Assembly: GCA_043817155.1 (NCBI GenBank)
Contig: JBDRHE010000072.1
Coordinates: 1,345-65,344, forward strand
Reading direction: 5' to 3'
DNA from: Candidatus Omnitrophota bacterium
Lineage (GTDB): Bacteria; Omnitrophota; Gorgyraeia; JABMRN01; RBG-13-46-9
DNA: 64,000 bases
The translations under genes and the position numbers were made by a program. The notes beneath the pieces were generated by a model that made no database searches, was not told the DNA's origin, and saw only the letters and a program-made list of their open reading frames with translations. Position 1 is the stretch's first letter, and each line of letters opens with the position of its first letter. Positions 1,136 to 52,627 of this stretch are shown piece by piece.

Positions 1136-1247
1136 CCTCGTCTTTGCGAGGGACCGATAGATACTTAGCGTTCCGAAGCAATCTCAAACGAGCCTCGGAG
1201 AGATTGCTTCGGCACGCTCGAATATTACGGTGCCTCGCAAAGACGAG
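1136..1247. repeat. Family C palindromic element, copy C1 (short form lacking the GCCTGCCTGCCCG core).
   Basis: CCTCGTCTTTGCGAGG...GATTGCTTCGGCACGCTCGAATATTACGGTGCCTCGCAAAGACGAGG. The ends are inverted repeats of each other. Shared with copies at 9.5, 34.5, 41.3, 42.8 and 52.4 kb. Confidence 0.85.
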
Positions 1248-1281
1248 GAAAGTGAAAAACTATCTCTGTCCCTATATCCCG

Positions 1282-2373
1282 TTAGAATTTCTTAAGCAGG
1301 TAAATCCCGAGCCCGCCAAAGATTATATTGCCGAACCACGCTCCCAGAGCCGGCGGCAGTATACCACCTTTTCCAAGAGCAAGTCCAAAGGCCATAACCG
1401 GTATGTAGAGTAGCGCTATAATTATGCCCTTGGCCATTCCAAGAAGGGCTCCGCCTCTTTGCGTAGAGAGGGTAAAAGGTGTGCTTATCAGGATAATTGC
1501 AATAGTGGCAAATGGGAATGATATTTTGTGATAAAGTTCTACGAGAAGCCTGGCATAGGTCTTTTTGCTGCCTGTCGCAAAAATATCGATGTAACTTTTG
1601 AGACGCCCATAGCTCATATATTCAGGTTTCCATTGGTTGTTTATAAAATCAGTGGGCGTTTCAACGATCGGTATGTCTCTTTCCTTTGATATAATAGGTT
1701 CTCCAATAAACTTACCGCTATTATCTATCTTGAAGATGACAACGTCTTTTCCGCGCCAGCGCTTATCGTCCGTCCAATGAATGGATTTTGCCGAGATCTT
1801 CATGATAAGGTCCTGGGCGGTGTCATGCTGGTGGATTATGATATCTTCCAGCACGCAATTCTTAATATCAAACTTTTTGGCAAATATGATCTTATTTCCG
1901 CGCCCGTATATTGCAACATTGTCGATCGTGACCGTTCCGCTCTTGCCGCGTTTGCCCGCATCAAGTTTTTCATAGCGGATCCTGTTCGCCTTTCTCATGG
2001 CGCCGGGCAACATCTTATCGCTCAGTAAAAATACTACTATGCTTATGACAAATCCTACAGCAAGTATGGGTTTTAAGATGCTCCATACACTTATACCGGT
2101 GGCCCTGAGAGCTGTGATTTCGCTGTGCCGGTTTAGATTGCCCAGAAGATAGACGTTTGCTATTAACGCGGATATGGGAATTATTTGTGTAAGAATAAAA
2201 GGCGTAAGATAAAAGTAAAATGCCACAAGGCTCGATGCAGGAATGCGTTCTTTCAGTATTTCATCGAGAAACCCGAATATATCGCCTATAACAAAGAGGA
2301 GCCATAGGAGCAGAACGCAGAATAGAAATGTAACGATAAAGCCTTTGAATATGTACTTATCTATTATTACCAT
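1282..2373 (-). CDS. lptG: LptF/LptG family lipopolysaccharide export permease.
   Basis: 363 aa with multiple TM segments and YjgP/YjgQ-like architecture: N-terminal TM cluster, periplasmic beta-jellyroll region, C-terminal TM helices. Confidence 0.7.
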   Translation of the reverse strand: MVIIDKYIFKGFIVTFLFCVLLLWLLFVIGDIFGFLDEILKERIPASSLVAFYFYLTPFILTQIIPISALIANVYLLGNLNRHSEITALRATGISVWSILKPILAVGFVISIVVFLLSDKMLPGAMRKANRIRYEKLDAGKRGKSGTVTIDNVAIYGRGNKIIFAKKFDIKNCVLEDIIIHQHDTAQDLIMKISAKSIHWTDDKRWRGKDVVIFKIDNSGKFIGEPIISKERDIPIVETPTDFINNQWKPEYMSYGRLKSYIDIFATGSKKTYARLLVELYHKISFPFATIAIILISTPFTLSTQRGGALLGMAKGIIIALLYIPVMAFGLALGKGGILPPALGAWFGNIIFGGLGIYLLKKF

Positions 2374-2430
2374 CTTTGTGTTTTAAGTTCACTTTTGCAA
2401 GTGAGAAAGTGAAAAATTTGCAATCCACCG

Positions 2431-2535
2431 GCAATGAATTCCGCATAGCGGAATTCATTGCTTGGCGAGATGCTAAGCATCTCGCCAAAGGTGATATCTG
2501 TTTTTGATGGAGGAAGGCCCCGGACTTTAATCCGG
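2431..2535. repeat. Family A three-hairpin element, full copy A1.
   Basis: GAATTCCGCATAGCGGAATTC hairpin, then TTGGCGAGATGCTAAGCATCTCGCCAA hairpin, then GGTGATATCTGTTTTTGATGG, then GGAGGAAGGCCCCGGACTTTAATCCGGGGGGCTCCAC hairpin. About 90% identical to the copy at 27283. Confidence 0.85.
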
Positions 2536-2555
2536 GGGGCTCCACTAAATTCCAA

Positions 2556-3650
2556 TTACTTCTTCGACATCCTTAAAAAGAGAAACATCCCGACCATGAA
2601 GAGTATTATATTCGCCATCCACACACCGGTCCAGGGCGGTACGATCTTGCGTATAGCGCAGGCTATGCCTCCCAGCATTATCCCCCAATAGACCAAAAAT
2701 AGAACCATTGTAAGCCCAAAATTTATAGATTTCTCTCTTCTGTGCATTTTGACGGCGATGGGTATGCCTATGAGGACAAATACAAAATTTGAAAATGCCA
2801 AAGCCAACTTATTGTGCAATTCTATATGGAGGGGTATTGTCTCTACGTTATCCCTTTCTAATTTTGTTATCTCTTGTTTTAATTCACTTATGCTCATTTC
2901 TCTTGGCTTTTTCCCCAGCTTCTCTATGTCCAGGGCATCTTTGAAATTCAGGGTCATATAATAGGTGCTGAATACCAGTTTATAGAAGTTGCTTGGGTCC
3001 TGGGGTAGACTCTCGTCGGCACTTCCGTTCTTTAGCTTAAGCTTTATTGCGTTCTGCTCCGGCATAGATATGATTTCGCCTTCTTCGGCAACTATGGTCC
3101 TGGTGGGCCTTCCTTCCTGCGGCTGGTATATTCGAATGTTTTTAAGTATATTCCCTTTTATATTGTAGACAAATATTATATAGTTCTCGAAGCCCTTTAT
3201 GAAGACACCCGGCTCTATCATCGCAATAGGGTTTCTTATGCCAATCTCCTTTATAAGTTTTCGCGCTGCAAACCCGGATTGCGGGAGAACCTTATCGTTT
3301 AGCGGGACGCAGGATAGGCTGAGTATGAATCCCGCGATAAGTACGGGTAGAGCGATCCTGTAGAGGCTAACACCGCTCGATTTTAACGCTATGATCTCAT
3401 TGTCACTTGAGAGCCTACCGAACGCCAAAAGCATAGATGAGAGAACGGAGATGGGTATAGTAAAGGTAAGGAGCCATGGCATCAAACAGAGGAAGAGTTT
3501 CATAACATACACGGGGCTCACACCTTTATTAATAATAAGATCGGCTATCTGGACAATGTTCCCTGTTGCAAGTATCATGGTAGATACAAGAAGCGACAGG
3601 AAAAAAGGCCCGACCAGTTCTTTAAGAACATAATTTCTTATTATGCGCAT
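2556..3650 (-). CDS. lptF: LptF/LptG family lipopolysaccharide export permease.
   Basis: Paralogous to the adjacent lptG. ATG at 3650 is preceded by a GGAGG ribosome-binding site. The track ORF extends to a GTG at 3683. Confidence 0.7.
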   Translation of the reverse strand: MRIIRNYVLKELVGPFFLSLLVSTMILATGNIVQIADLIINKGVSPVYVMKLFLCLMPWLLTFTIPISVLSSMLLAFGRLSSDNEIIALKSSGVSLYRIALPVLIAGFILSLSCVPLNDKVLPQSGFAARKLIKEIGIRNPIAMIEPGVFIKGFENYIIFVYNIKGNILKNIRIYQPQEGRPTRTIVAEEGEIISMPEQNAIKLKLKNGSADESLPQDPSNFYKLVFSTYYMTLNFKDALDIEKLGKKPREMSISELKQEITKLERDNVETIPLHIELHNKLALAFSNFVFVLIGIPIAVKMHRREKSINFGLTMVLFLVYWGIMLGGIACAIRKIVPPWTGVWMANIILFMVGMFLFLRMSKK

Positions 3651-3825
3651 CCGTTTAAGCCTCCAGGCACCCAATATTAGCACTTATGTTCCCGTTTGTC
3701 AACCGGCCGGGCATTCCACCACACGGCTGAGATGAAAGAGATTATCGTGCAAGTAGCAGACACTTGATAAGTTTCTGCTACTGACCCTACCGGGGGTCAA
3801 TGCGTAGGGTGAAAGTTTTCTTTAA

Positions 3826-3882
3826 AAATCCCGTCCCGGGCTGGATTAAAGAGGTTTACCTAGACAGCCCGGGACGGGATTT
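3826..3882. repeat. Family D long hairpin, copy D1.
   Basis: AAATCCCGTCCCGGGCTG / loop GATTAAAGAGGTTTACCTAGA / CAGCCCGGGACGGGATTT, a perfect 18-bp stem. The loop sequence is conserved in copies at 35989, 36072 and 48484. Confidence 0.85.
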
Positions 3883-3935: not shown

Positions 3936-3945
3936 CATGATACTT

Positions 3946-9484: not shown

Positions 9485-9555
9485 TATACAGGTGAGCATA
9501 GATGGGATACGCAGATGGGCGCAGATGGAAGACACAGATTGGCACAGATAAATAA

Positions 9556-9804
9556 CTCGTCTTTGCGAGGTGCCGTAAAGAGCTAGCGCACCGAAACCCC
9601 GCCGCATGCTTCGCATTGCGGGATCCCGCCATACGAAAGTAACGGCGGGACAATCTCTTACTTAACGGTTTGTCATCCCCGCGAAAGCGGGGATCCAGAG
9701 TAGCCTCGTAGAGAGTCTATCCATGGATTCCCGCTTGCGCGGGAATGACAGAGAAGAGATTGCTTCGGCACGTTCGAATATTCCGGTGCCTCGCAAAGAC
9801 GAAG
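9556..9804. repeat. Composite element: a family C copy (C2) split by a nested family B copy (B1, 9671-9750).
   Basis: C left end CTCGTCTTTGCGAGGTGCCGTAAAGAGCTAGCGCACCGAA at 9556-9598. B1 is TGTCATCCCCGCGAAAGCGGGGATCCAG...CTGGATTCCCGCTTGCGCGGGAATGACA. C right end GAGATTGCTTCGGCACGTTCGAATATTCCGGTGCCTCGCAAAGACGAAG at 9755-9804. Confidence 0.85.
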
Positions 9805-10980: not shown

Positions 10981-11715
10981 ATGCCCATGCAGAAAGAGTC
11001 AAATAGTGGAGCCCCCCGGACTTTAGTCCTGGGCTCCCTCCATCAAAAACACATATCACCTGCCGCAGTCTGCGGACGGATTAAAATAGCGCCAAGTCTT
11101 CTGGCGGCCGATTTCGGATGCCTCGCTTCAGAGATTGATAAAGCTGAAAAAGCCGGGGCGGATTCGTTGCACGTCGATGTGATGGACGGGCACTTTGTGC
11201 CGAATATAACCCTTGGACCATTCATAGTAAAAGCGATGAGGAGAGTGACGAAGCTTCCATTGATCTCCCACCTTATGATCGAAAGCCCGGAGAAGTATAT
11301 TAAAGAATTCGTCGCGGCAGGAAGCGACATGATCATCTTCCATATAGAGACTACAAAGAGGCCAAAGATGCTTATAGAAAAGATAAAGCGGACTAAAACG
11401 AAGGTAGGGGTTTCGATCAAGCCCAATACGAAGGTCCGCGCCATAAGATCTCTTCTTCCGCTTCTCGATGAGGTGCTTGTTATGACCGTGGAGCCCGGAT
11501 TCGGTGGTCAGAAGTTTATGCATAAACAGCTTCCGAAGATACGGGATATCAGGGAGTCTTTCGCCGGAGACATAGCTGTCGACGGCGGGATAAACCAGGA
11601 GACCGCGGAGCTCGCTGTTTCAAAAGGCGCCAATATACTGATAGCCGGAACGTATCTCTTCGGTGCCAGGAACATGAAGAGCCTCATCCGCAAACTCAAA
11701 TCGATCAAACCCTAA
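10981..11715 (+). CDS. rpe: Ribulose-phosphate 3-epimerase.
   Basis: KIAPSLLAADF, HVDVMDGHFVPN and EPGFGGQKF motifs. The only ATGs (10981, 10987) lie upstream of and read through family A copy A2, giving a ~28-aa N-terminal extension. Confidence 0.8.
   Translation: MPMQKESNSGAPRTLVLGSLHQKHISPAAVCGRIKIAPSLLAADFGCLASEIDKAEKAGADSLHVDVMDGHFVPNITLGPFIVKAMRRVTKLPLISHLMIESPEKYIKEFVAAGSDMIIFHIETTKRPKMLIEKIKRTKTKVGVSIKPNTKVRAIRSLLPLLDEVLVMTVEPGFGGQKFMHKQLPKIRDIRESFAGDIAVDGGINQETAELAVSKGANILIAGTYLFGARNMKSLIRKLKSIKP
11006..11060. repeat. Family A element, partial copy A2 (hairpin 3 plus spacer), in reverse orientation.
   Basis: GTGGAGCCCCCCGGACTTTAGTCCTGGGCTCCCTCCATCAAAAACACATATCACC. Confidence 0.8.
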
Positions 11716-14592: not shown

Positions 14593-14682
14593 TGTCATTC
14601 CCGCGCAAGCGGGAATCCAGACGGAAATGACAAACATATTAGGAAGATAGACTTCTGGATCCCCGCTTTCGCGGGGATGACA
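14593..14682. repeat. Family B element with 27-bp terminal inverted repeats, copy B2.
   Basis: TGTCATTCCCGCGCAAGCGGGAATCCAG...CTGGATCCCCGCTTTCGCGGGGATGACA. Confidence 0.85.
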
Positions 14683-16282: not shown

Positions 16283-16320
16283 AAGCTCTTAATAGGTCCG
16301 TTCAACAGTTTGTCATTCCC

Positions 16321-16407
16321 GCGAAAGCGGGAATCCAGTCATGCCACAATGCATTAGAAAGAATACACTTCTGGATCCCCGCTTGCGCGGGGATGACATG
16401 ACTTTAT
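16321..16407. repeat. Family B element, copy B3.
   Basis: TGTCATTCCCGCGAAAGCGGGAATCCAG...CTGGATCCCCGCTTGCGCGGGGATGACA. Confidence 0.85.
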
Positions 16408-23946: not shown

Positions 23947-24026
23947 TGTCATCCCCGCGCAAGCGGGGATCCAGAGCGGACACGTAGATAGTTAATCCAT
24001 GGATTCCCGCTTTCGCGGGAATGACA
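23947..24026. repeat. Family B element, copy B4.
   Basis: TGTCATCCCCGCGCAAGCGGGGATCCAG...ATGGATTCCCGCTTTCGCGGGAATGACA. Its right end supplies ATG codons at 24021 and 24026. Confidence 0.85.
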
Positions 24027-27282: not shown

Positions 27283-27393
27283 GAATTTCGCAAAGCGAAA
27301 TTCATTGCTTGGCGAGATGCTAAGCATCTCACCAAAGGTGATATGTGTTTTTGATGGAGGGAGCCCACCGGACTTTAGCCCGGGGGGCTCCAC
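27283..27393. repeat. Family A three-hairpin element, full copy A3.
   Basis: GAATTTCGCAAAGCGAAATTC / TTGGCGAGATGCTAAGCATCTCACCAA / GGTGATATGTGTTTTTGATGG / GGAGCCCACCGGACTTTAGCCCGGGGGGCTCCAC. Confidence 0.85.
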
Positions 27394-29785: not shown

Positions 29786-29885
29786 TGTCATTCCCGGACC
29801 GCTGCTGCGGTCTAAACTCCAGCGGGAATCCATGGATGCACTCTCTACGAGTCCGCTCTGGATCCCCGCTTTCGCGGGGATGACA
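29786..29885. repeat. Family B element, copy B5 (long-left-arm subtype).
   Basis: TGTCATTCCCGGACCGCTGCTGCGGTCTAAACTCCAGCGGGAATCCATGG...CTGGATCCCCGCTTTCGCGGGGATGACA. Same subtype as copy B8. Confidence 0.85.
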
Positions 29886-30666: not shown

Positions 30667-30819
30667 GATCCCTCGGCTATACCTGGGGATTAATTACGAT
30701 CATTCAAACCTGCCTGCCTATCAGCAAGTCGGGCAGGCAGGGAAGAGAAACAGGGAAGATGAACTTATGAAAATTAGAAATTTTCATAAGTTCAGATCTC
30801 ATTAAAGGGAGAAAAACTC

Positions 30820-33800
30820 ATGTCGAGAATAGTTGCTCAATCAGCAATAAGAGGCGCGAAGAAGCTTGTACAGGAAGCCGAGGGGCTACTGGGCAAGGCG
30901 ATCGAAGAGAAGGGCAAGGAACAGATACTGGAATTCCCGGAGACGGCTTTCTTCATGCCGATGGCCAATGCCCTACTGGGGGCCGAGGTCAAGACTCTAA
31001 ATGAAGCATTGCCCATAATAAAAGAGGCCAAATCGCTTTTGCACGAAGATCCGACTAACGATCTATGGCTTCCTTATCTTGGTAGCGCGCTGGATTCCGG
31101 AATCGCGGCTTTGCTGGCAGAGGAGATTATTCTGGCTATACGCTACATTTATGGCAAAGAGCCTCAGGCCGATTGTAACGGCTTTTTTACGGATACGATA
31201 CTGCGCACTTTAGGAATACAACTCGTAGATGGCAGGATGCCTGGCTTTGCCGCGATACTTGGGGCTGCTCCGGACAATAAGACCGCGGTAGATATCGTAA
31301 GGGACTTTCAGAAGAGAAACATAATGACTTTTGTAGGCTCAAGCTCAAATGGTAAGAGCATCATAGACCAGCTTAAAGAAGAGAAGATCGAGATGGGATG
31401 GGATACTTATATAGTACCTTATGGCAGGGATACCGTATCTGCGCTCTATCCGTTGAACTGGGCCATAAGAGGAGCGCTTACTTTTGGCGGGATCAAGGCC
31501 GGGAATGCAAAGAAATGCTTAATGTATTGCAAAGAGAGGGTCTTTGCTTTCGGATTAACTCTCGGAGAGGTCGATGATGTTAAGTACGCTACCGGTGCGG
31601 GAGCAATAAACATGGGATTTCCTATAATAGCCGATACCGAGATACCGGAGATCAGGCCAACAGGTATATGCACGTATGAACATCTTGTAAAAGAACTTGA
31701 TCATAAGAAGATAGTTCAAAGCTGCATTGAGGTAAGGGGTGTTAAGGTGAAGCTTTCCGAGATACCGATACCCGTTGCATATAGCGCTGCTTTTGAAGGG
31801 GAGAGAGTAAGGCGCGAACAGATGTATGCGCAATTCGGAGGGAAGTTCTCACACGCGTTCGAATACGTTCGCTCTAAATCTCTTGATGAGGTAGAAGATG
31901 ATAAGATAGAGGTCGTCGGGCCGGAGATAGATGAAATGACCGAAGGAGGGGCCTATCCTCTCGGTATAGTGGTGGATGTCGCAGGAAGAAAGATGCAGCA
32001 CGATTTTGAACCTATACTGGAAAGGCAGGTGCATACCTTCTTAAATGAAGCTATGGGCATATTCCATATGGGTCAGAGAAGTATGTGCTGGATGAGGATC
32101 TCTAAAGACGCGCAGAAGAAAGGCTTTAAGCTGAGGCACCTGGGCGTGATCCTCCATGCGCAATTTCACGATATCTACTCTAAGATCGTTGACAAAGTCC
32201 AGATCACCATCTACACGAAGAAAGAGGATGTCGATAGGATAATGCCTGAAGCTGAAAAGGTATATGAAGAGCGTGATGAGCGTATGGCCGGTATGACGGA
32301 TGAGAGCATCGACACGTTTTACAGCTGCACGCTTTGTCAGAGTTTTGCGCCGAATCACCTTTGCATAATAAAGCCCGAGAGACTCGGTCTCTGCGGGGCT
32401 TATAGCTGGCTCGATGCGAAGGCATGTTACGAATTGAATCCGTCAGGACCGAATCAGCCCATCAAAAAAGGCGAATGTCTGGACCCGGTCCGGGGTGAAT
32501 GGAAGAATATAAACGATTTTATATATAAGAGTTCTAATAAGACGCTTGAGAAGTTCCACGGATATTCGATCATGAGCTACCCGGAAACAAGTTGTTGCAC
32601 CGGTGATACAGAGGTGTTGATAGGTGGAAAGATCGTAAAGATCGGTGATTTTATAGACCTTCATAGGGGTGGGGAGGAGTATGCCAGATTTAAGGCAGCA
32701 ACCTTGAGCGGTGGCAAAACCGTAGAAGAGGATATCGTTGCTATGCAAAGATTTACGGCTCCGGAAGAGTTGATAAGGATTGAAACAAAATCGGGCGCAG
32801 AACTTGTATTGACAAAGGATCATAAGGTCTTTGTTGATAGGCAGGAAGGGGAAGCTCAGGTTAGGGCAGATGAGATAAGAGATGAGGATAGAATCGTATC
32901 GCTTAAGAGACTGAATCTAAAAGAGGAGTTGCCTGAGATATCCGAAATATTCGGGGGGCGTTTAAACGAGGATATTTCAAATGAGATTATAAACAAGGAT
33001 CTCTTTTATATATTGGGACTCCTTGCTTCCGACGGTTCGATATGCAGAGTGGGAAGAAGGGAATACAAGATCAATTTTATCAACACCGAACCGGCGTTGA
33101 TTAATAAGTATAAGAGGCTCGCTAAAAAATTATTTCCAAAAAAGAACTGCAAAGCCCGCATTAAGAACAAAAATCTCTCCACAATAAAAGGACGTATTAT
33201 AAATTCTCAGAAGGTATGCTACGATTGTTATTCGAACAATAGCGTTTTGGGAATGATTGCAGAGTATTTTGGTATAAAAGTTGGCATTAAAGGGGTATGG
33301 AATTTGGCACAATTGATTAATCTTCCAAAGGACTTCATCGGTTCTTTTTTGGCCGGCATCTTCGACGGCGATGGAAGCATAAGATTGAGAAGATACTATT
33401 CCAAGTGGGATATCCCCGAAGCCTATCTCTGTATCGGGGATAAGAAAGCAGCATCTCACCTTCAGATGCTATTGCGAAGATTTGGCATAACAAGTTTTGT
33501 AAAGAAGTCCAATTCGGTTTACAAGGTGACTTTATACGGAACGAACCTAATTAAATTCCTGGATATTGCACCCATTGTTCATCCAAAGAAGAAGAAAATA
33601 TCGGAAAGAGTCAAGAAATTATCAAAAGCGAATAAAGGTCCTGACAGGGCACAGGGAGAGGTTCTGCCTTTTGGAGTAGGCAAAATTTTGGCAGAAATCC
33701 CTGAAACGAAAACAATACTTAGCCCTAGCACACTTTTCTATTATAGAACATTCAGATCTAGACCCGTGCTTTCCAATGTAAATAAGGTGATTGACGGATT

Positions 33801-34374
33801 GCCAAACGATAAGGCGCAAATCCTAAAAGATGCTATTGACACCGATTACTTTTTGGACATTGTTTCAAAGGTTAGAACAATAAAGAATAACGGGAGATTT
33901 GATTATGTGTACAATTTAACCCTTTCCGATACCCATAGTTATTATGCGAATGGAATGCATATTGCAAATTGCGGATGTTTTGAATGTATAATCGCGATTC
34001 TGCCTGAAGCGAACGGATTCATGGTGGTGAACAGGGAGTTTCCCGGGCTTACGCCTGCGGGGATGAAATTCTCTACGCTCGCAGGGTCCGTTGGCGGCGG
34101 AAATCAGACTCCCGGATTCATGGGTGTAGGAAGGCTTTATATAATCAGTAAAAAGTTCATATCCGCTGATGGCGGATTAAAGAGGCTGGTCTGGATGCCG
34201 AAGGAACTTAAAAGTGCTCTCGGTGACAGGCTAAAGAAGAGGTGCGCGGATCTCGGCATGCCGGATCTATTTGATAAGATAGCCGATGAGACTAACGCAA
34301 CTGAATCGGAAGCATTGGTAAAATATTTAACCGAGAAGGGCCATCCGGCCATTACGATGGAACCGTTAATGTGA
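30820..34374 (+). CDS. acsB: Acetyl-CoA synthase catalytic subunit (AcsB/CdhC) interrupted by an in-frame intein.
   Basis: 1184 aa, against about 730 aa for AcsB. The extein ends ...SYPETSC and resumes CGCFECIIAILPE (the A-cluster Cys-Gly-Cys Ni site). The intervening 458 aa has intein blocks. Confidence 0.9.
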   Translation: MSRIVAQSAIRGAKKLVQEAEGLLGKAIEEKGKEQILEFPETAFFMPMANALLGAEVKTLNEALPIIKEAKSLLHEDPTNDLWLPYLGSALDSGIAALLAEEIILAIRYIYGKEPQADCNGFFTDTILRTLGIQLVDGRMPGFAAILGAAPDNKTAVDIVRDFQKRNIMTFVGSSSNGKSIIDQLKEEKIEMGWDTYIVPYGRDTVSALYPLNWAIRGALTFGGIKAGNAKKCLMYCKERVFAFGLTLGEVDDVKYATGAGAINMGFPIIADTEIPEIRPTGICTYEHLVKELDHKKIVQSCIEVRGVKVKLSEIPIPVAYSAAFEGERVRREQMYAQFGGKFSHAFEYVRSKSLDEVEDDKIEVVGPEIDEMTEGGAYPLGIVVDVAGRKMQHDFEPILERQVHTFLNEAMGIFHMGQRSMCWMRISKDAQKKGFKLRHLGVILHAQFHDIYSKIVDKVQITIYTKKEDVDRIMPEAEKVYEERDERMAGMTDESIDTFYSCTLCQSFAPNHLCIIKPERLGLCGAYSWLDAKACYELNPSGPNQPIKKGECLDPVRGEWKNINDFIYKSSNKTLEKFHGYSIMSYPETSCCTGDTEVLIGGKIVKIGDFIDLHRGGEEYARFKAATLSGGKTVEEDIVAMQRFTAPEELIRIETKSGAELVLTKDHKVFVDRQEGEAQVRADEIRDEDRIVSLKRLNLKEELPEISEIFGGRLNEDISNEIINKDLFYILGLLASDGSICRVGRREYKINFINTEPALINKYKRLAKKLFPKKNCKARIKNKNLSTIKGRIINSQKVCYDCYSNNSVLGMIAEYFGIKVGIKGVWNLAQLINLPKDFIGSFLAGIFDGDGSIRLRRYYSKWDIPEAYLCIGDKKAASHLQMLLRRFGITSFVKKSNSVYKVTLYGTNLIKFLDIAPIVHPKKKKISERVKKLSKANKGPDRAQGEVLPFGVGKILAEIPETKTILSPSTLFYYRTFRSRPVLSNVNKVIDGLPNDKAQILKDAIDTDYFLDIVSKVRTIKNNGRFDYVYNLTLSDTHSYYANGMHIANCGCFECIIAILPEANGFMVVNREFPGLTPAGMKFSTLAGSVGGGNQTPGFMGVGRLYIISKKFISADGGLKRLVWMPKELKSALGDRLKKRCADLGMPDLFDKIADETNATESEALVKYLTEKGHPAITMEPLM
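32596..33969 (+). mobile_element. Intein (458 aa) with a LAGLIDADG homing endonuclease domain, inserted in acsB.
   Basis: Block A CTGDTEVLIGG. Block B LTKDHKVFV. Two LAGLIDADG motifs (LGLLASDGSI, LAGIFDGDGSI). Block G YYANGMHIAN, followed by the +1 Cys of the CGCFEC motif. Confidence 0.85.
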
Positions 34375-34380
34375 AATGAA

Positions 34381-34424
34381 GCCATAAGTTACGACAACCC
34401 AGTGGTTGTCGTAACTTATATGGC
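34381..34424. repeat. Family F hairpin, copy F2, directly after the acsB stop.
   Basis: GCCATAAGTTACGACAACC-CAGT-GGTTGTCGTAACTTATATGGC. Confidence 0.8.
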
Positions 34425-34478
34425 TGAATTTCATCCCGAGGCACTGAAAGTGCCGAGGGATCTCAAACTTAAAACACT

Positions 34479-34613
34479 TGTCATTCCCGCGCAAGCGGGA
34501 ATCCATGGATGTACTCTCGACGAGTCCGCTCTGGATCCCCGCTTACGCGGGGATGACAAAAGATGAGATTGCTTCGGCGCGCTAAGAAGAATAAGGCGCC
34601 TCGCAAAGACGAT
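34479..34613. repeat. Family B copy B6 (34479-34558) abutting a family C right-end fragment C3 (34563-34613).
   Basis: B6: TGTCATTCCCGCGCAAGCGGGAATCCATGG...CTGGATCCCCGCTTACGCGGGGATGACA. C3: GAGATTGCTTCGGCGCGC...GGCGCCTCGCAAAGACGATG. Confidence 0.8.
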
Positions 34614-34641
34614 GTAACTTAAAAAAAAGGAGAGTCAAGAA

Positions 34642-35988: not shown

Positions 35989-36128
35989 AATTCCAGTCCC
36001 GGCCTGGATTATAGAGGTTTGCCTAGACAGGCCGGGACTGGAATGCAGATCGCGTACGGATAGAATCAGGACATTCAGGTCCCGGGCTTTCTAGGACAAC
36101 CTCTTTTATCAAGCCCGGGACCTGAATG
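35989..36128. repeat. Two tandem family D hairpins (D3a 35989-36045, D3b 36072-36128).
   Basis: CAATTCCAGTCCCGGCCTG-GATTATAGAGGTTTGCCTAGA-CAGGCCGGGACTGGAATG and CATTCAGGTCCCGGGCTT-TCTAGGACAACCTCTTTTATC-AAGCCCGGGACCTGAATG. The second loop is the reverse complement of the first loop type. Confidence 0.85.
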
Positions 36129-38124: not shown

Positions 38125-38214
38125 GTCATTCCCGTGTTTTCCCACATGTCATCCCCGCGTAAGCGGGGATCCAGACGAGGCCCACCATGGATTCCCGCTT
38201 CCGCGGGAATGACA
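38125..38214. repeat. Family B element, copy B7, with a partial duplicated left end.
   Basis: GTGTCATTCCCGTGTTTTCCCACA + TGTCATCCCCGCGTAAGCGGGGATCCAG...ATGGATTCCCGCTTCCGCGGGAATGACA. Confidence 0.85.
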
Positions 38215-40867: not shown

Positions 40868-41284
40868 ATGGTTATAACTGAATACATAAAACTAAAGTCG
40901 CGTGGCGAGACGGATATAATAAATATAACCGATGACGTTGCAGGCGCCCTCGAGAAGGCAAAACCGAAGAACGGCATTGTTACCGTATTTGTTTCCGGAG
41001 CAACGGGAGGCCTTACCACGGTAGAGTATGAGCCGGGGCTTGTCAGTGACCTGAAGAGCGCTTTTGAGAAGTTGGCCCCTCGCGACGCGGAATATGTCCA
41101 TAATCTGAGATGGGCCGACGGAAATGGTTTTTCACATGTGAGGGCCTCGCTATTAGGGCCATCTCTAACCGTTCCTTTCACAAACAAGAGACTAACGCTC
41201 GGCACCTGGCAGCAGATCATATTTATAGATTTCGATAATAGGCCCAGGACGAGAGAGATAGTTGTACAGATAATGGGAGAATAA
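40868..41284 (+). CDS. YjbQ/UPF0047 family protein (secondary thiamine-phosphate synthase-like).
   Basis: 138 aa. Conserved GTWQ and HVRASLLGPS motifs. Confidence 0.7.
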   Translation: MVITEYIKLKSRGETDIINITDDVAGALEKAKPKNGIVTVFVSGATGGLTTVEYEPGLVSDLKSAFEKLAPRDAEYVHNLRWADGNGFSHVRASLLGPSLTVPFTNKRLTLGTWQQIIFIDFDNRPRTREIVVQIMGE

Positions 41285-41312
41285 AGGGAGCGCCAGAGCA
41301 CTTGTTTCTTCT

Positions 41313-41487
41313 CTCGTCTTTGCGAGGTGCCGTAAAAAGCTAGCGCACCGAAGCAATCTCCGACTAGCTCGAATGAGATTGCCTGCCTGCCCGCCAAAGC
41401 TTTTAAATGGCAGGCGGGCCTGCCAGTATATTTCGGGCAGGCAGGCTTCGGCACACTCGAATCTTACGGTGCCTCGCAAAGACGAAG
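41313..41487. repeat. Family C element, full copy C4.
   Basis: CTCGTCTTTGCGAGGTGCCGTAAAAAGCTAGCGCACCGAAGCAATCTC...GATTGCCTGCCTGCCCG...GGCAGGCGGGCC...CGGGCAGGCAGGCTTCGGCACACTCGAATCTTACGGTGCCTCGCAAAGACGAAG. Confidence 0.85.
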
Positions 41488-41513
41488 TAACTTTAAACGC
41501 GAGAGTAAAAACC

Positions 41514-42806
41514 ATGAAGCCAATATTACAGTTAGCGCTGGATTTCGTTAATTTGAAAAGAGCCCTTAAGGTCGCTGAAGAGGCCATGAAGGGCGGTGTC
41601 GATTGGCTTGAGGTCGGCACTCCGCTTATAAAGAGCGAAGGGCTTGACGCTATAAGAGAGCTAAGAAAAAGATTCCCGAAAATCAAGATAGTCGCCGATA
41701 TGAAGATAATGGATGCCGGGAGGATCGAAACCGAGGCCGCGGCCAAAGCAGGGGCAAACGTAGTCTGTGTTCTCGCGGTTGCTTCCGATAGCACCATACG
41801 TGAATGTGTTGAAGCAGGCCGGAACTATGGAGCAGAGATAGAAGCGGATTTAATAGGAATAGAAGCGAGCCGCCTGGAGTCGAGGGCGAAGGACCTGGAG
41901 AAGCTGGGGGTACACTATATAGGTATGCATATAGCCATCGATGATCAGATGAGAGGAGAGAATCCTTTTCTCAAGCTGAGCAAAATAGCAAAAGCTGTTA
42001 AGATCCCTGTCGCCTGCGCAGGAGGCGTAAACTCTGAGACGGCTTTCAAAGCGATCAACGCCGGCGCCGATATAATAATTGTAGGAGGAGCCATAAGCAA
42101 GGCTAAGAACCCGACAAAAGCCGCGCGGGATATAAAAAGATCCATAGAAAAACGGAGGGCCATAAAGACTAAACTTTTCAAGCGGGTTGGCGCGGGCGAT
42201 GTTAGGAAGATCTTAAGAGAGGTATCCACATCAAATATTTCAGATGCAATGCACAGAACCGGTAGCCTGCCGGAGCTCTATCCTATTTCAAGGGGATTTA
42301 AGATGGTTGGTCCGGCATTTACGGTTCGCACCTTTCCGGGGGATTGGGCGAAGACTGTTCAAGCCGTCGATATGGCCGATAAAGGACAGGTTATCGTTAT
42401 AGACGCAGGCGGCGTAGGCCCTGCAGTATGGGGTGAGCTCGCAACACATGGCGCCATTCAGAGAAGACTTGCAGGTGTTGTGATCTATGGAGCGGTAAGG
42501 GATGTAGCGGAGATAAGAAAATTAAATTTTCCGGTATTTTCCAAACTTATAACTCCTGTCGCGGGCGAGCCCAAAGGATTCGGAGAACTGGGCGCACCGG
42601 TATCGATAGGCGGCGTGAGAGTCTGTAACGGCGATTGGATAGTAGGTGATGATGACGGGGTAGTCTCTATACCCAAAGACAGGACGGTCGAGATCACAAA
42701 CCGGGCCATGAGCGTCTTAGAGCAGGAGAACAGGCTAAGAGAAGAGATCGACCGGGGTTCTACCTTGGCTCAGGTGGTTGAACTCCTGCGGTGGGAGAAG
42801 AAGTAA
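41514..42806 (+). CDS. Fusion protein: 3-hexulose-6-phosphate synthase-like (OMP decarboxylase fold) N-terminal domain plus RraA/MenG-like C-terminal domain.
   Basis: N-terminus LQLALDFVNLKRAL...IKIVADMKIMDAG (HPS/KGPDC-like). C-terminus GELATHGAIQRRLAGVVIYGAVRD (RraA family). The track ORF starts inside repeat C4. Confidence 0.65.
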   Translation: MKPILQLALDFVNLKRALKVAEEAMKGGVDWLEVGTPLIKSEGLDAIRELRKRFPKIKIVADMKIMDAGRIETEAAAKAGANVVCVLAVASDSTIRECVEAGRNYGAEIEADLIGIEASRLESRAKDLEKLGVHYIGMHIAIDDQMRGENPFLKLSKIAKAVKIPVACAGGVNSETAFKAINAGADIIIVGGAISKAKNPTKAARDIKRSIEKRRAIKTKLFKRVGAGDVRKILREVSTSNISDAMHRTGSLPELYPISRGFKMVGPAFTVRTFPGDWAKTVQAVDMADKGQVIVIDAGGVGPAVWGELATHGAIQRRLAGVVIYGAVRDVAEIRKLNFPVFSKLITPVAGEPKGFGELGAPVSIGGVRVCNGDWIVGDDDGVVSIPKDRTVEITNRAMSVLEQENRLREEIDRGSTLAQVVELLRWEKK

Positions 42807-42844
42807 GGACAGACTAACCAGAGCACCGGAGTAATTGGCTCTCT

Positions 42845-42984
42845 CCTCGTCTTTGCGAGGTGCCGTAACATAGTTAGCGCACCGAAGCAATCTCAGACTA
42901 GCTCGAATGAGATTGCCTGCCTGCCCGTATATTTCGGGCAGGCAGGCTTCGGCACGCTCGAATTTTACGGTGCCTCGCAAAGAC
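42845..42984. repeat. Family C element, copy C5.
   Basis: CCTCGTCTTTGCGAGGTGCCGTAACATAGTTAGCGCACCGAAGCAATCTCAGACTAGCTCGAATGAGATTGCCTGCCTGCCCGTATATTTCGGGCAGGCAGGCTTCGGCACGCTCGAATTTTACGGTGCCTCGCAAAGAC. Confidence 0.85.
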
Positions 42985-43024
42985 ATGTGTACTAACTTGA
43001 GCGATAAGGAGTAAAAAACAGATT

Positions 43025-44131
43025 GTGGCGAAACCGTTACGCATATTCATATCAGCGACCTTACAGAATACAGGCAAGACCACCTTCTCGCTCGGGCTTA
43101 TAGCCGCGCTTCTTAAGCGATTCAAGAATATAGGTTTTATTAAACCGATCGGGCAACGCTATCTGATGGAGCAAGGATTTAAGATAGACGAAGACTCGGT
43201 TCTGCTCGACAAAATATTTAATTTAGCCTCCAATCTTAATATAAAAGATCTCTCTCCTATTGCCGTTGAGAGAGGTTTTACCGAGAAGTATATCGAAGGT
43301 GTATCTTCAGGAGATTATGTAAAGGAGATAAAGGATTCGTTTGACAGGGTTGCAGAAGGTAAGGACCTTGTAATAATTGAGGGAACCGGTCATGCGGGGG
43401 TAGGGTCAGTATTCGATCTATCCAATGCCACGGTAGCGAAACTGCTGAATGCAAAAACCGTGCTTATTGCGCCCGGCGGTATTGGAAGACCGATAGACGA
43501 GGTTATGCTAAATAAGGCGCTCTTTGATAAAGAGAATGTTGAACTTGCAGGCGTGGTTGTAAATAAAGTGCTTCCAGAGAAGCTCGATAAGATAGATAAA
43601 TATGTAAGGATGGGATTTGAGAAGAAGGGATTGTCGGTCCTGGGAGTCATGCCCTACCATAAGAGCCTCGATCTTCCCACCATGAGGGAGATATACGGAG
43701 AGATCAAGATAAAGCTTATATGCGGCGGATCCTATTTAGACAATGCGGTAAACAGGATATTGATCGGAGCTATGGAGGTGAAGGAGGCGCTTAAATATGT
43801 AGTGGATAGGTCCCTCATAATAACTCCATGCGATCGTGACGATATAATATCTGCGATGATAGAGGTCCAAAGGTGTAGGATGGATAAGAGATGCAGTATA
43901 TCGGGAATGATCCTGTCAGGAGGCGTAGAACCGCCGGCAGAGACGATCAAACTTCTTGAAAAGAACCGGATCCCCACGCTTCTTGCCGAAGGCGATACAT
44001 ATTCAATCGCAGCCAGGGTACACAACATGAAAGTTAAGATTAAACCCGAAGATAAACTAAAAATTGATATAATAGTTAAGATGGTGAGCAAGTACGTGGA
44101 TGTGGATAAGATCGTGGAGAGTATAAGTTAA
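43025..44131 (+). CDS. DRTGG-domain protein resembling the N-terminal (non-catalytic) part of phosphotransacetylase (P-loop CobQ/MinD-like domain plus DRTGG domain).
   Basis: GTG start with an AGGAG ribosome-binding site. C-terminal DRDDIISAMI (DRTGG-like) motif. Confidence 0.55.
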   Translation: MAKPLRIFISATLQNTGKTTFSLGLIAALLKRFKNIGFIKPIGQRYLMEQGFKIDEDSVLLDKIFNLASNLNIKDLSPIAVERGFTEKYIEGVSSGDYVKEIKDSFDRVAEGKDLVIIEGTGHAGVGSVFDLSNATVAKLLNAKTVLIAPGGIGRPIDEVMLNKALFDKENVELAGVVVNKVLPEKLDKIDKYVRMGFEKKGLSVLGVMPYHKSLDLPTMREIYGEIKIKLICGGSYLDNAVNRILIGAMEVKEALKYVVDRSLIITPCDRDDIISAMIEVQRCRMDKRCSISGMILSGGVEPPAETIKLLEKNRIPTLLAEGDTYSIAARVHNMKVKIKPEDKLKIDIIVKMVSKYVDVDKIVESIS

Positions 44132-44187: not shown

Positions 44188-44276
44188 TGTCATTCCCGGA
44201 CCGATCTTGCGGTCTAAACTCCAGCGGGAATCCATAGTGGGGCTCGCCTGGATCCCCGCTTCCGCGGGGATGACAT
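44188..44276. repeat. Family B element, copy B8 (long-left-arm subtype).
   Basis: TGTCATTCCCGGACCGATCTTGCGGTCTAAACTCCAGCGGGAATCCATAG...CTGGATCCCCGCTTCCGCGGGGATGACA. Confidence 0.85.
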
Positions 44277-45390: not shown

Positions 45391-45393
45391 TAA

Positions 45394-45471
45394 TTGATTA
45401 CACTGATTTATTATTGATTACACGGATTGGGGAATTGATTACACTGATTTAATATTGATTACACTGATTGA
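45394..45471 (+). repeat. Tandem direct-repeat array E1: four copies of TTGATTACAC(T/G)GATT with a 20-21-bp period.
   Basis: Units at 45394, 45414, 45435 and 45455. Begins 4 nt after the hldD stop and ends 18 nt before the ATG of the flavodoxin-like gene. Confidence 0.85.
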
Positions 45472-48404: not shown

Positions 48405-48539
48405 GCCCCGGGCTTAGATTATGAAGGTTGTTGTGAAAAGCCCGGGGCTTAAATGCAGACTAAAGTAGATGCGGACAAAGGCCATTCAGGTCCCGGGCTT
48501 TCTTGGTAAACCACTTTATTCAAGCCCGGGACCTGAATG
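48398..48539. repeat. Two tandem family D hairpins (D4a 48398-48455, overlapping the bioF stop codon; D4b 48484-48539).
   Basis: CATTTAAGCCCCGGGCTT-AGATTATGAAGGTTGTTGTGAAA-AGCCCGGGGCTTAAATG and CATTCAGGTCCCGGGCTT-TCTTGGTAAACCACTTTATTC-AAGCCCGGGACCTGAATG. Confidence 0.85.
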
Positions 48540-49386: not shown

Positions 49387-49455
49387 TGTCATCCCCGCGC
49401 AAGCGGGGATCCAGGCGAGAGTTTCGTCTGGATTCCCGCTTCCGCGGAAATGACA
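49387..49455. repeat. Family B element, copy B9.
   Basis: TGTCATCCCCGCGCAAGCGGGGATCCAGG...CTGGATTCCCGCTTCCGCGGAAATGACA. Confidence 0.85.
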
Positions 49456-50246: not shown

Positions 50247-50938
50247 AGAGATCTAAAGCGGTATTTATTGCAAGTACGGATACCGGGGTAGGGAAGACCG
50301 TAGTAACGGGTCTTTTTGGTAGATTCCTTTTAAGTAGGGGTTTAAACGCTATACCCCAAAAATGGATACAGACAGGAGGCGTTACCGCGCTAGATGCCTT
50401 CAGGCATCTTGGTCTCATGCGAATTACCGGAGACGATATAAAGAAGCATATAGCCCATATCTCTCCATATATATTTAAATTTGCAGCCTCTCCACATCTT
50501 GCAGCTTTGCGAGAAGGAAGGAGAATAGATAAGGGCAAAATAGAGCGGAGTTTCAAACACCTGTGTTCCGAATTCGATCATGTTTTGGTAGAAGGAATTG
50601 GCGGCGGGCTTGTGCCATTTAACAAAAAGGATATGGTTATAGATATTGCGGCGAAACTTAAACTTCCGGTGATTATTGTGGCGGCAAATAGGTTGGGGGC
50701 GATCAATCATACCCTTCTTACTGTAGAGGCTATTAAAAGAAGAGGCATGAAGATATTGGGTGTTGTATTTAATGACCAGCGCAAGAAAGAGAACCCGGTT
50801 ATTCTAAAGGATAATATCAGAATAATAAGGGAGATTACAGGCCAGAGGGTGCTGGGTCGCTTGCCCTGGATCAAGAATGAGGCTGCATTATACAGAGCAT
50901 TCTTGCCCATAGGAAGGAAAATATACAAGGTTCTTTAA
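50243..50938 (+). CDS. bioD: Dethiobiotin synthetase.
   Basis: FIASTDTGVGKTVVT P-loop. GTG start overlaps the bioC stop (GTGA). Confidence 0.85.
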   Translation: MKRSKAVFIASTDTGVGKTVVTGLFGRFLLSRGLNAIPQKWIQTGGVTALDAFRHLGLMRITGDDIKKHIAHISPYIFKFAASPHLAALREGRRIDKGKIERSFKHLCSEFDHVLVEGIGGGLVPFNKKDMVIDIAAKLKLPVIIVAANRLGAINHTLLTVEAIKRRGMKILGVVFNDQRKKENPVILKDNIRIIREITGQRVLGRLPWIKNEAALYRAFLPIGRKIYKVL

Positions 50939-52276
50939 ATGGATACCTGGATAAAACGAGATTTAAAACATAATTGGCACCCTTATACGCAGATGAAGGA
51001 TTGCAAGAGGCTGCCACCCATTCTGATCGAAAAGGCGAAGGGGTTAAAATTATATGATAATAAGGGTAAGTTCTATTACGATACCATATCCAGCTGGTGG
51101 TGTAATATCCATGGGCACAATCACCCTACGATAAGACGCGCCGTTAAAGAACAGCTGGATACCCTTGAACACGTACTGTTTGCCGGTTTTACTCACAAAC
51201 CGGCAATAATCTTATCAGAGAAACTCGTCTCGATCGCTCCAAAAAACCTTACAAGAGTATTCTATTCGGACAATGGATCGACAGCGGTTGAGACGGCAAT
51301 TAAGATGTCGCTTCAATACTGGTATAATACCGGCAGAAGCAACAAGAGAAGATTTATATCGCTGGATCATGGATACCATGGTGATACCGCAGGCGCTATG
51401 AGTGTAGGCGGCGTAAGCCTCTTTAACGAGGTATTCAGCCCGCTCCTCTTTAAGGCTTTCAAAGCGCCATCACCTTATTGCTATAGGTGTCCTATGGGCG
51501 AAGAGAGAGACTCCTGTGGTATAGAATGCATAAAGCCGCTCGAGAAGATATTAAAGGCAAAGAGTGGCGAAATAGCCGGCATGATCCTGGAGCCGCTTGT
51601 CATGGCAGCGGGCGGAATGATAATCTATCCGAAGGAGTACCTAAAGAAGGCGCGCGAACTTACCGGAAGATATAATGTGCATTTGATACTGGATGAGGTG
51701 GCTACCGGATTTGGAAGAACAGGGAAGATGTTCGCGTGTGAGCACACGAATACCAAGCCCGACTTCATGTGTCTCTCTAAAGGCATCACATCCGGATACA
51801 TGCCGCTTGCCGCGACACTTACTACCGGCAAGATATATAGAGCTTTCTACGCCGATCTCGAAAAGAAGAAGACCTTCTATCACGGTCACACCTACACCGC
51901 CAATCCTCTGGCATGCAGAGCGGCGCTGGCAAGTCTCGAGATCTTTAAAAATGAGGATACGCTTAAAAGGGTAGAAGCGATAGCTCCCATCTTTAATGAA
52001 GAGCTAGCAATGTTCAGAAACCTAAAGTTAATAGGGGATGTCAGGCACATAGGTATGATAGGGGCCCTTGAGCTTGTAAAGGATAAGAGCACAAAGGAGC
52101 CCTTCGCCATTAAAGATGGGATAGGCGCACGCATCTATAAGGAGGGGCTCAAGAAGAATCTTCTACTCAGGCCGCTTGGGAACATAGTCTACTTCTACCT
52201 ACCGCTTTGCATAAAGAAATCGGAGCTTCGCACCATCCTGAAGCGAACCTTCAAAATAATTAAAAGAATATATTGA
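50939..52276 (+). CDS. bioA: Adenosylmethionine-8-amino-7-oxononanoate aminotransferase.
   Basis: Class III aminotransferase with an LDEVATGFGRTG motif. 445 aa. Confidence 0.9.
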   Translation: MDTWIKRDLKHNWHPYTQMKDCKRLPPILIEKAKGLKLYDNKGKFYYDTISSWWCNIHGHNHPTIRRAVKEQLDTLEHVLFAGFTHKPAIILSEKLVSIAPKNLTRVFYSDNGSTAVETAIKMSLQYWYNTGRSNKRRFISLDHGYHGDTAGAMSVGGVSLFNEVFSPLLFKAFKAPSPYCYRCPMGEERDSCGIECIKPLEKILKAKSGEIAGMILEPLVMAAGGMIIYPKEYLKKARELTGRYNVHLILDEVATGFGRTGKMFACEHTNTKPDFMCLSKGITSGYMPLAATLTTGKIYRAFYADLEKKKTFYHGHTYTANPLACRAALASLEIFKNEDTLKRVEAIAPIFNEELAMFRNLKLIGDVRHIGMIGALELVKDKSTKEPFAIKDGIGARIYKEGLKKNLLLRPLGNIVYFYLPLCIKKSELRTILKRTFKIIKRIY

Positions 52277-52431
52277 CAGAAGTTTTTTTTCTGCTACAAT
52301 TGAAATTGAATTTCAATGTCATCCTCCTGCGCCATAGCAGAAATTCACTGTATCTATGCTCCGGAGGATGCTATCCACCGAAGCCAAACACGGTAAGTAT
52401 TTGGCGAAGGTGGATCAATAGACGCCACCGT

Positions 52432-52627
52432 CTCGTCTTTGCGAGGTGCCGTGATTTACTGAGCGCACCGAAGCAATCTCAAACGAGCTCGAATGAGATT
52501 GCCTGCCTGCCAGTATATTTCGGGCAGGCAGGCTTCGGCACGCTCGAATATTCCGGTGCCTCGCAAAGACAGAGTAAAATGAGACTGCTTCGGCACACTC
52601 CGAATTTTTTGGTATCTCGCAATGATG
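52432..52627. repeat. Family C element, copy C6, plus a degenerate extra right-end fragment.
   Basis: CTCGTCTTTGCGAGGTGCCGTGATTTACTGAGCGCACCGAAGCAATCTC...GATTGCCTGCCTGCCAGTATATTTCGGGCAGGCAGGCTTCGGCACGCTCGAATATTCCGGTGCCTCGCAAAGAC, then GAGACTGCTTCGGCACACTCCGAAT. Confidence 0.85.

Follow-up and report, generated by a model that had tools for sequence, protein, structure and literature searches.

Two-helix hairpin dimers between Omnitrophota genes: a probable REPIN-like variant of the CGTC-tagged/Ssn-related repeats

The stretch of Candidatus Omnitrophota DNA analysed here (64,000 nucleotides of contig JBDRHE010000072.1, hereafter the window) carries housekeeping genes, including those of the Wood-Ljungdahl pathway and of folate metabolism, glgC, fur/feo and a bioBF(H)CDA cluster; with few exceptions they lie on the + strand, and the GC skew is positive throughout. 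The product of hps-rraA shares 100% identity with a protein from a Candidatus Omnitrophota MAG. Six copies of a repeat, family C, lie between these genes. An earlier analysis made from the letters alone (the sequence-only reading) had described them as nested palindromes of a family resembling miniature transposable elements with inverted repeats (MITEs). It had placed all six with only small shifts in coordinates, quoted their ends correctly (the left 23-mer is exact at 9556, 41313 and 42846) and named the right neighbours, i.e., an aldolase gene, glgC, yjbQ, hps-rraA and bioA. We find that each copy is a pair of structured modules of about 48 nt with their heads pointing outward, and not a palindrome with simple terminal repeats.

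The simplest copy, c1 (1137-1247; all copies are given on the + strand), lies between the convergent genes for a class II aldolase (+) and LptF/G (-), and consists of a left module (1137-1185), a 14-nt spacer and a right module (1200-1247) without any secondary insertion. Between glgC and a GT4 glycosyltransferase gene, c2 (9556-9803) has a right module at 9756-9803 and a left module (9556-9595 plus 9651-9657) that is split by a 55-nt hairpin (9596-9650) in the second of its two conserved boxes, box B; its spacer holds a dimer of another repeat, the NTS-type family B (9671-9750). A family B dimer in the opposite orientation (34479-34558) also occupies the spacer of c3 (34431-34613, between acsB and cdhD), whose right module is at 34565-34613 and whose left module is a variant (34431-34464, TCATCCCGAGG..CCGAGGGATCTC) with ATCCC/GGGAT as its first helix. 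The copy between yjbQ and hps-rraA, c4 (41313-41487), comprises a left module (41313-41360), a spacer (41361-41374) and a right module (41375-41487) interrupted by a small core hairpin and by a further 33-nt insertion within that core (41383-41446). Next to it, between hps-rraA and an AAA_26/DRTGG gene, c5 (42846-42984) has its left module at 42846-42894, its spacer at 42895-42908 and its right module at 42909-42984, the last bearing a 31-nt core hairpin (42917-42947). Finally, c6 (52432-52626), between bioA and fur, has a left module (52432-52480) and a right module (52495-52570) with the core hairpin at 52503-52533, followed by the degenerate half-copy already noticed in the sequence-only reading, which is a second right module (52581-52626) with the head ATCATTGCGAGA. 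In six of six dimers the left-type module is upstream on the + strand (p about 0.03).

The internal hairpins reported earlier exist, but what had been taken for the core of the element is a 31-nt insertion in the right module of three copies and not part of the basic element. The solo core-type hairpin reported near acsB was confirmed, with its position corrected to 30709-30742 (+ strand, CCTGCCTGCC..GGGCAGGCAGG), 77 nt upstream of where acsB starts. It stands apart from the dimers as a small hairpin repeat of its own, of the same kind as that inserted in the right modules of c4-c6.

The end 20-mer CTCGTCTTTGCGAGGTGCCG (up to three mismatches) matches the window 9 times against 0.00 expected, the inner arm GAGATTGCTTCGGCAC 8 times against 0.48, the core 13-mer CGGGCAGGCAGGC 9 times against 1.06, and the two-box module pattern 8 times against 0.01 in dinucleotide shuffles; chance is therefore excluded as their origin. 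A repeat finder recovered family C independently, with c5 (42846) and c6 (52432) 93% identical over 140 nt. RNA and DNA folding bore out the nested hairpins: the copy at 42846-42985 is stable as either nucleic acid (as DNA, -50 kcal/mol whichever strand is folded, z about -10.9; as RNA, -85 kcal/mol), and c1 reaches -44.4 kcal/mol as DNA (z -11.9).

Eleven modules of the window were mapped by both of their boxes, GTC(A/T)TTGCGAGG and CGAAGCAATC(T/C)C. From head to tail, a module consists of a C/T-GTC head, helix 1 ((A/T)TTGC/GCAAT, 4-5 bp), a GA/GAA internal loop, a G-C pair, a variable helix 2 (5 bp with a 13-14 nt loop in the window) and a C(T/C)C tail. All intact modules of the window read (C/T)(C/T)GTCTT at the head, the degenerate one reads CATCAT and those from elsewhere YYGTCAT, and every intact module of the window has GCAAT-C-T-C, i.e., a cytosine right after the palindrome. 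In the dimer the heads point outward and the tails face each other, with 18 nt between the GCAATC and GATTGC boxes, corresponding to 14 nt between module ends. Helix 2 is GGTGC/GCACC in left modules and GGCAC/GTGCC in right ones, and compensated versions occur in the left module of c1 (GGGAC/GTTCC) and the right module of c3 (GGCGC/GCGCC). This helix is 98% paired in the window modules, with two covarying pairs, and the long hairpin of the whole dimer accumulates G·T pairs and A·C mismatches. Pairing of helix 2 is thus kept at the expense of the long hairpin, which argues that the module fold, and not just the long palindrome, is conserved.

The same module is found in other genomes. A scan of viral contigs with the pattern TTGCGAGG-N15-45-CGAAGCAATC gave 128 matches, about 80 of them with a GTCA prefix that the pattern did not specify, and 56 unique modules adopt the same two-helix shape. 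G-C makes the first pair in 151 of 166 unique inserts; Watson-Crick or tandem G·A/A·G pairs come next, over two positions, and pairing at positions 4-5 is far above shuffled expectation, which indicates covariation. The foreign modules stand singly, in tandem or in alternating arrays (e.g., locus L117), in one case with seven alternating copies. The apparent terminal inverted repeats are self-folding modules that elsewhere occur alone, in tandem and alternating, as do repetitive extragenic palindromic (REP) sequences, bacterial interspersed mosaic elements (BIMEs) and REPINs, which are inverted REP doublets. The head strand folds better in 49 of the 56 modules, but this is owing to the constant loops, and the choice of a strand from wobble pairs was abandoned.

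The nuclease family that proved relevant to these modules is Ssn; in 2025 its members were presented as the first nucleases with site specificity whose cutting is confined to single-stranded DNA (PMC11893778). SsnA of Neisseria, a GIY-YIG protein of 94 aa, binds the NTS repeat (CGTCATTCCCGCGMAVGCGGGAATCYRG) only as single-stranded DNA and on one strand, cuts a few nucleotides upstream of it and does not touch RNA; the GTC before the stem is critical, as is the C after it, the base most critical for binding (PMC11893778). Of the homologues, 71% are flanked by "Ssn-related motifs" (SRM; Chenal et al., Nat Commun 2025, PMC11893778).

Scanning a genome collection with the 17-mer GTCTTTGCGAGGTGCCG returned 40 single matches in unrelated taxa, about what chance gives in 596 Gb, and just one of them, in an Anaerolineales locus (L022), was informative. 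There, a 100-aa GIY-YIG gene has two forward modules upstream and one reverse module downstream. The encoded protein matches the N. gonorrhoeae ssnA locus with 45% identity (E 6e-17, tblastn; 44%, E 2e-22, blastp), and that locus was confirmed to be flanked by NTS. Searches of PDB and NCBIfam with the L022 nuclease gave only weak UPF0213/UvrC similarity. In eight of ten over-long homologues of this protein the extension is translated module C. Module-derived N- or C-terminal extensions were seen on the public GIY-YIG proteins P0148, P0187, P0199, P0207, P0221, P0222, P0227 and P0234.

We then took 80 loci from metagenomes, each of which encodes a relative of the L022 protein. Module C lies within 250 nt of the Ssn-family gene in 72 of them and on both sides in 42, at a density of 4.3 per kb near the gene vs. 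0.30 per kb further off, a 14.6-fold enrichment. Neighbouring modules are most often paired heads-out, the median gap being 18 nt, which is the design of family C. By contrast, the published SRM pattern has no match within 250 nt of these 80 module C-flanked Ssn genes. The module class is thus the characteristic flanking repeat of one Ssn-family GIY-YIG clade in other phyla. Ssn homologues of Planktothrix and Spirosoma are flanked by further variants missed by the SRM pattern, with helix 1 compensated to ATTCT, ATCCT or ATCCC, and the ATCCC variant beside the Spirosoma homologue is the form found in the left module of c3 (34431-34464). On a Planktothrix agardhii plasmid (L228, NZ_LR882964.1, 18847-19131) the Ssn-family gene, with its own repeat variants, sits inside a defence island, between DISARM drmA and a restriction-modification gene of the MmeI type. 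The viral contigs yielded no relatives of the L022 nuclease, nor did tblastn in 98 module-bearing viral loci, and most modules therefore lie far from an Ssn gene.

Fifty foreign Ssn-flanking modules were used, and no others, to build a covariance model (R1). In these modules 85% of cells are paired vs. 69% after shuffling, a score that 0 of 500 shuffles reached, and both helices covary, with changes on both sides in 8 of 11 pairs. Run over the window, R1 recovered seven intact family C modules at 35-42 bits (E 2e-9 to 1.2e-7): both modules of c1 (37 bits, E 4.7e-8), the right modules of c2 (E 4.4e-8) and c3 (41.8 bits, E 2.1e-9), and the left modules of c4 (E 1e-7), c5 (E 1.2e-7) and c6 (E 1.1e-7). 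The three modules split by the core hairpin and the degenerate one follow at E 0.003-0.18 (c4, 0.18; c5, 0.0067; c6, 0.003 and 0.021), and nothing else in the 64 kb falls below E 1; the variant left module of c3 scores E 4.9.

Family B, for its part, fits the published type directly. Its units, TGTCAT(T/C)CCCGCG-NAA-GCGGG(A/G)ATCCAG, match the NTS/SRM pattern HGTCWYN(0-2)YYVSBRHN(0-5)WNVSBRGN(0-2)RNCYNB 14 times against 0.05 expected; they account for 14 of the 15 SRM matches in the window. Their density is about 220 units per Mb. Most are paired heads-out as heterodimers, one stem being ATCCCC and the other ATTCCC, and both orientations are seen (9671-9750, 14593-14682, 16311-16398, 23947-24026, 34479-34558, 38147-38214 and 49387-49454) and occur as single units at 29858-29885 and 44248-44275. 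Two more units, 29786-29833 and 44188-44235, have a small hairpin (GGACCGC..GCGGTC) in place of the tetraloop and are intermediate in design between the one-helix NTS and the two-helix module C. The sequence-only reading had held family C to be independent of family B, and this did not stand: both share a CGTC(A/T)T head and an AATC(C/T) tail, and family B dimers lie within the spacers of two family C copies. Family C modules also have the SRM head HGTCWY directly 5' of the stem, and the C after the palindrome with the RNCYNB tail, and their class flanks Ssn-family (cd10448-like) genes in the 72 loci mentioned above. Judged by these signatures, families B and C appear to be sister types of Ssn-related/CGTC-tagged repeats.

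How the copies came to their places can be seen from five related loci (about 73-77% protein identity) that share the order acsB-cdhD-RACo-cbiA-cdhD-pterin-yjbQ-hps-AAA_26-epimerase. At the yjbQ|hps junction, which holds c4, the gap is 229 nt in the window vs. 0, 0, 99, -1 and -4 nt in the relatives; at hps|AAA_26 (c5) it is 218 nt vs. 3, -16, 2, -4 and -16 nt; and at acsB|cdhD (c3) it is 267 nt vs. 9-130 nt. For these three junctions the gaps of the relatives are mostly -16 to 15 nt, with exceptions of 99-130 nt in L225 and 61 nt in L226, and in their sequences the stop codon abuts the ATG. Neither family C nor family B occurs at these junctions in any of the five loci, and L225 carries a related heads-out dimer elsewhere, just upstream of acsB. 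In the window, six of the nine junctions of the acsB-epimerase cluster are expanded by 160-270 nt, each with a hairpin repeat. Rather than at operon boundaries, as had been proposed, the copies sit within co-directional gene clusters, at least three of them at junctions that are tight in most related genomes; the accompanying view of a dispersed repeat that behaves as insertions is borne out by the empty sites. Further, c4-c6 share the 31-nt core insertion at the identical point in box B and have unrelated flanks, which shows that the whole dimer was copied as a unit. Together with the empty, tight junctions of the relatives, this shows lineage-specific insertion, and c4 and c5 are insertions inside an operon.

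The homology between copies ends 2-3 nt outside (5' of) each CGTC head. One copy, c5, has on either side an imperfect direct repeat of 24 nt (ACTAAC..GAGC..GGAGTAA; p = 0.004, uncorrected). Family B inserted twice, independently and in opposite orientations, into the apical spacer of family C, which hints at a targeting of extruded hairpin loops, with only two cases. TAACTT lies 1-8 nt past the right-module head in c3, c4 and c5 (34613-34625, 41487-41500, 42985-43000), and AACTT likewise beside the related dimer of the other Omnitrophota genome (L225, 1189-1200); this recurrence may reflect a target preference or a part of the unit. The composite TAACTT-N7-RRGGAG, tried as a conserved 3' tail of the element, was dropped because it is not enriched, although TAACTT itself recurs.

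These observations bear on the label MITE-like, which finds no support in its usual sense. A classical MITE would derive from a DDE-type insertion sequence by internal deletion, with a transposase acting in trans that recognises its terminal inverted repeats on double-stranded DNA, and the size of 110-190 bp, the inverted ends, the intergenic positions and the several copies with unrelated flanks would all suit it. However, family C has neither simple terminal inverted repeats nor a target-site duplication, and no transposase or RAYT (REP-associated tyrosine transposase) was found among the approximately 52 window proteins scanned with Pfam, nor any GIY-YIG gene in the window. Each supposed terminal repeat folds by itself and occurs alone, in tandem and alternating; its helix is kept by compensatory changes that weaken the inverted repeat; and the gene found between such modules encodes a 100-aa GIY-YIG nuclease, not a DDE enzyme. 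We consider this origin very improbable.

Taken together, we propose, with a probability of roughly 70%, that family C copies are REPIN-like heads-out heterodimers of a two-helix variant in the CGTC-tagged/Ssn-related repeat superfamily. The repeat class itself was described in 2013 and 2025, and family C would be a structural variant of it. The feature that defines REPINs, an inverted doublet as the replicating unit, is present, since the modules are paired heads-out and c4-c6 share one secondary insertion. One might then suppose that a RAYT (an HUH/Y1 enzyme related to IS200/IS605) mobilises family C as it would any ordinary REP/REPIN family, with an incidental link to Ssn, because hairpin-module dimers, heterodimers, nested loop insertions and the absence of target duplication are all traits of REPINs and BIMEs (PMC3116915, PMC3733652). 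However, the head is CGTC/TGTC instead of GTAG, and no dedicated transposase was found for the CGTC-tagged REPs, CGTC-1 to CGTC-4 (Di Nocera et al., BMC Genomics 2013, PMC3733652); the gene that module C flanks in 72 of 80 loci is a GIY-YIG Ssn homologue, and the window contains no Y1 transposase (Pfam). Mobilisation by a RAYT therefore seems quite improbable.

Several findings weigh against placing family C among the Ssn-related repeats. None of its modules fits the published SRM pattern as a whole, and no Ssn or GIY-YIG homologue is encoded in the window or the related loci. A family C-specific 25-base pattern had 0 matches in the metagenome collection, and a protein search with a 48-aa open reading frame (ORF) reading through family C gave no candidates. 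As a single strand the full dimer favours one long hairpin (-50 kcal/mol) that buries the CGTC heads, and folding of an isolated module is weak (-7.7 kcal/mol, z -1.7). Helix 1 opens with an A-T pair in 34 of 50 foreign modules and with a T·T mismatch in 10 of 11 window modules, and equal counts of G·T and A·C in the variable helix of the 166 inserts do not indicate a selected strand. Target-site duplication is not evident (none at five of six copies), and, to our knowledge, no repeat has yet been shown to be transposed by an Ssn nuclease. Literature searches with the box sequences as strings returned primer coincidences only, and a search for GIY-YIG with MITE gave nothing relevant.

The positions inside operons raise the question of whether the hairpins act in RNA, e.g., as mRNA stabilisers, RNase sites or attenuators selected in the Wood-Ljungdahl, hps and biotin operons. 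All copies are intergenic and, with nearly all genes on the + strand, would be transcribed, as very stable hairpins (-85 kcal/mol); the constant orientation of the left-type module points weakly in the same direction, and REP sequences are known to stabilise upstream mRNA (PMC3733652). However, no Rfam family matches the window or ten module-rich loci at gathering thresholds, and an E-value scan of 41250-43050 against Rfam returned just a chance snoRNA match. Terminator and promoter scans at the family C copies were at chance level, with no terminator-like tail and no promoter excess. The relatives do without the hairpins, their gaps in the same operons being 0-12 nt, and the tight tie to a nuclease that ignores RNA argues for an origin at the DNA level. 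An RNA element as the primary identity thus appears improbable, whereas RNA-level effects are likely for copies inside operons and fit a DNA-level REPIN-like dimer as a secondary consequence, given that the relatives manage without them.

If family C belongs to the CGTC-tagged/Ssn-related superfamily, the following sequence of events can be envisaged. When single-stranded DNA is exposed during replication, repair or uptake, each module would fold, and a cognate Ssn, presumably encoded elsewhere in the genome, would bind the folded module and, in the manner of Neisseria SsnA at NTS, nick the strand 5' of the CGTC head at a distance of a few nucleotides. Nicks at the outer borders of the dimer could modulate recombination of single-stranded DNA and might seed copy-and-paste spread of the dimer, as is thought for RAYTs and REPINs. 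Transcription of the copies inside operons would also yield very stable RNA hairpins, which as a side effect may change the stability of the mRNA. The borders of the element 2-3 nt outside the heads, approximately where SsnA cuts relative to NTS, are consistent with such nicking.

It is possible, although less likely than not, that module C dimers are partners of their Ssn clade much as REPINs are of RAYTs; in this partnership a single-strand nuclease of about 100 aa with a GIY-YIG domain would drive copy-and-paste of hairpin doublets. Alternatively, the copies could be binding and cleavage sites of Ssn that spread by other means, such as another recombinase, template switching at hairpins or gene conversion. 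Repeats of the dRS3/NTS type in Neisseria are also integration targets for other elements, in keeping with this alternative. For Ssn itself, binding, cleavage and an effect on transformation were demonstrated, and mobilisation was offered just as a hypothesis (PMC11893778). However, the borders near the expected cut position, and the layout of a gene between inverted repeats that mirrors RAYT/REP, speak for Ssn in the spread, without being proof of it, and we regard separate routes as unlikely.

Other repeats and features surround family C in the window. Upstream of c3 and 6 nt past the acsB stop lies a near-perfect 47-nt palindrome, AGCCATAAGTTACGACAACC-CAG-TGGTTGTCGTAACTTATATGGCT (34380-34426). 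The acsB product (30820-34374, 1184 aa) contains an intein with a LAGLIDADG homing-endonuclease domain; among the relatives, three loci have no intein (725 aa), one has a mini-intein (894 aa) and one a full intein (1172 aa). A hairpin repeat, AGGnCATTCAGGTCCCGGGC ... GCCCGGGACCTGAATG, fills the cdhD|RACo and bioF|hydrolase junctions (36068-36128 and 48479-48539, 89% identical), and a further dispersed family of about 100 nt, 86-91% identical and ending in the hairpin CCCCGGACTTTAATCCGGGG, is found at 2436-2539, 27283-27386, 60486-60545 and 11003-11033. Short CAGAT(G/T)G repeats (GCAGATGGG CGCAGATGGA AGACACAGATTGGCACAGAT) occupy 9500-9550, between the glgC stop codon and c2. A tandem 41-nt unit rich in GATTACAC precedes an FMN-reductase gene (45392-45470), with a related copy between fur and feoB (53096-53133); these may be operator sites for a metal regulator. 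Several ORFs read through family C copies: that at 41373-41513 crosses c4 and would add 47 residues to the N-terminus of hps-rraA, and those at 52273-52653 and 42735-42986 (-) belong to spurious ORFs of 83-126 aa.

For annotation, such repeats create spurious ORFs and false N-terminal extensions, and they probably break metagenome assemblies. For Ssn biology, a target repeat of its own is expected for each clade; one large clade is now paired with a target of different design that the published pattern misses, making it a candidate new nuclease specificity, and Ssn-related repeats, like "orphan" Ssn genes, have therefore probably been undercounted. The contrast of filled and empty sites among Omnitrophota, inside essential operons, is evidence that the repeats are or recently were mobile, which had not been shown before for this class. 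If the partnership is real, the enzyme would be neither HUH nor DDE, providing a new enzymatic route to bacterial DNA transposition, and the window would record recent insertions into zero-gap junctions and of one repeat type into the apical loop of another.

Among known systems, Correia elements are of about 100-150 bp with 26-bp simple inverted repeats and a duplicated TA target; they are intergenic, co-transcribed and form RNA hairpins. Family C resembles them, and MITEs, in size, inverted ends, intergenic location, co-transcription and RNA hairpins, and differs from Correia elements in having structured modules as ends and no duplication. Closer is the REPIN-RAYT system (Bertels and Rainey, 2011, PMC3116915), together with the BIMEs of E. 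coli: in both, the spreading unit is an inverted pair of hairpins that can itself fold into a long hairpin, singletons resemble decayed dimers, the nuclease gene is single-copy and repeat-flanked, and no target is duplicated. Unlike there, the enzyme associated with module C is GIY-YIG and not HUH/Y1, the head is CGTC and not GTAG, and mobilisation is proposed only.

The CGTC-tagged REPs, whose stem begins with AT (as in most foreign modules, the window modules mostly having T·T at the first pair), share with module C the CGTC/TGTC tag, a short unpaired tail (CCA or CTC) and a prevalence of inverted dimers, often heterodimers with different stems, between co-directional or convergent genes. 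However, CGTC-1 to CGTC-4 have an uninterrupted stem of 8-9 bp with a 4-5 nt loop, and no associated enzyme was found for them, whereas in module C a helix of 4-5 bp is followed by an internal loop and by a second helix whose loop is 3-14 nt. A similar difference in design separates module C from NTS, which is one stem of 8 bp closed by a loop of 4 nt: the two helices of module C are separated by a conserved GA/GAA loop, sometimes with tandem G·A pairs, its apical helix is free in sequence and length so that the module spans 37-66 nt, and its cleavage is only predicted. Nevertheless, it has in common with NTS/SRM the CGTC(A/T)T head, a C-rich tail, the C that directly follows the stem and, in most foreign modules, a stem starting with AT. 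Each is a hairpin repeat with hundreds of intergenic copies, often in inverted pairs, and each flanks, on both sides, a single-domain GIY-YIG gene of about 100 aa.

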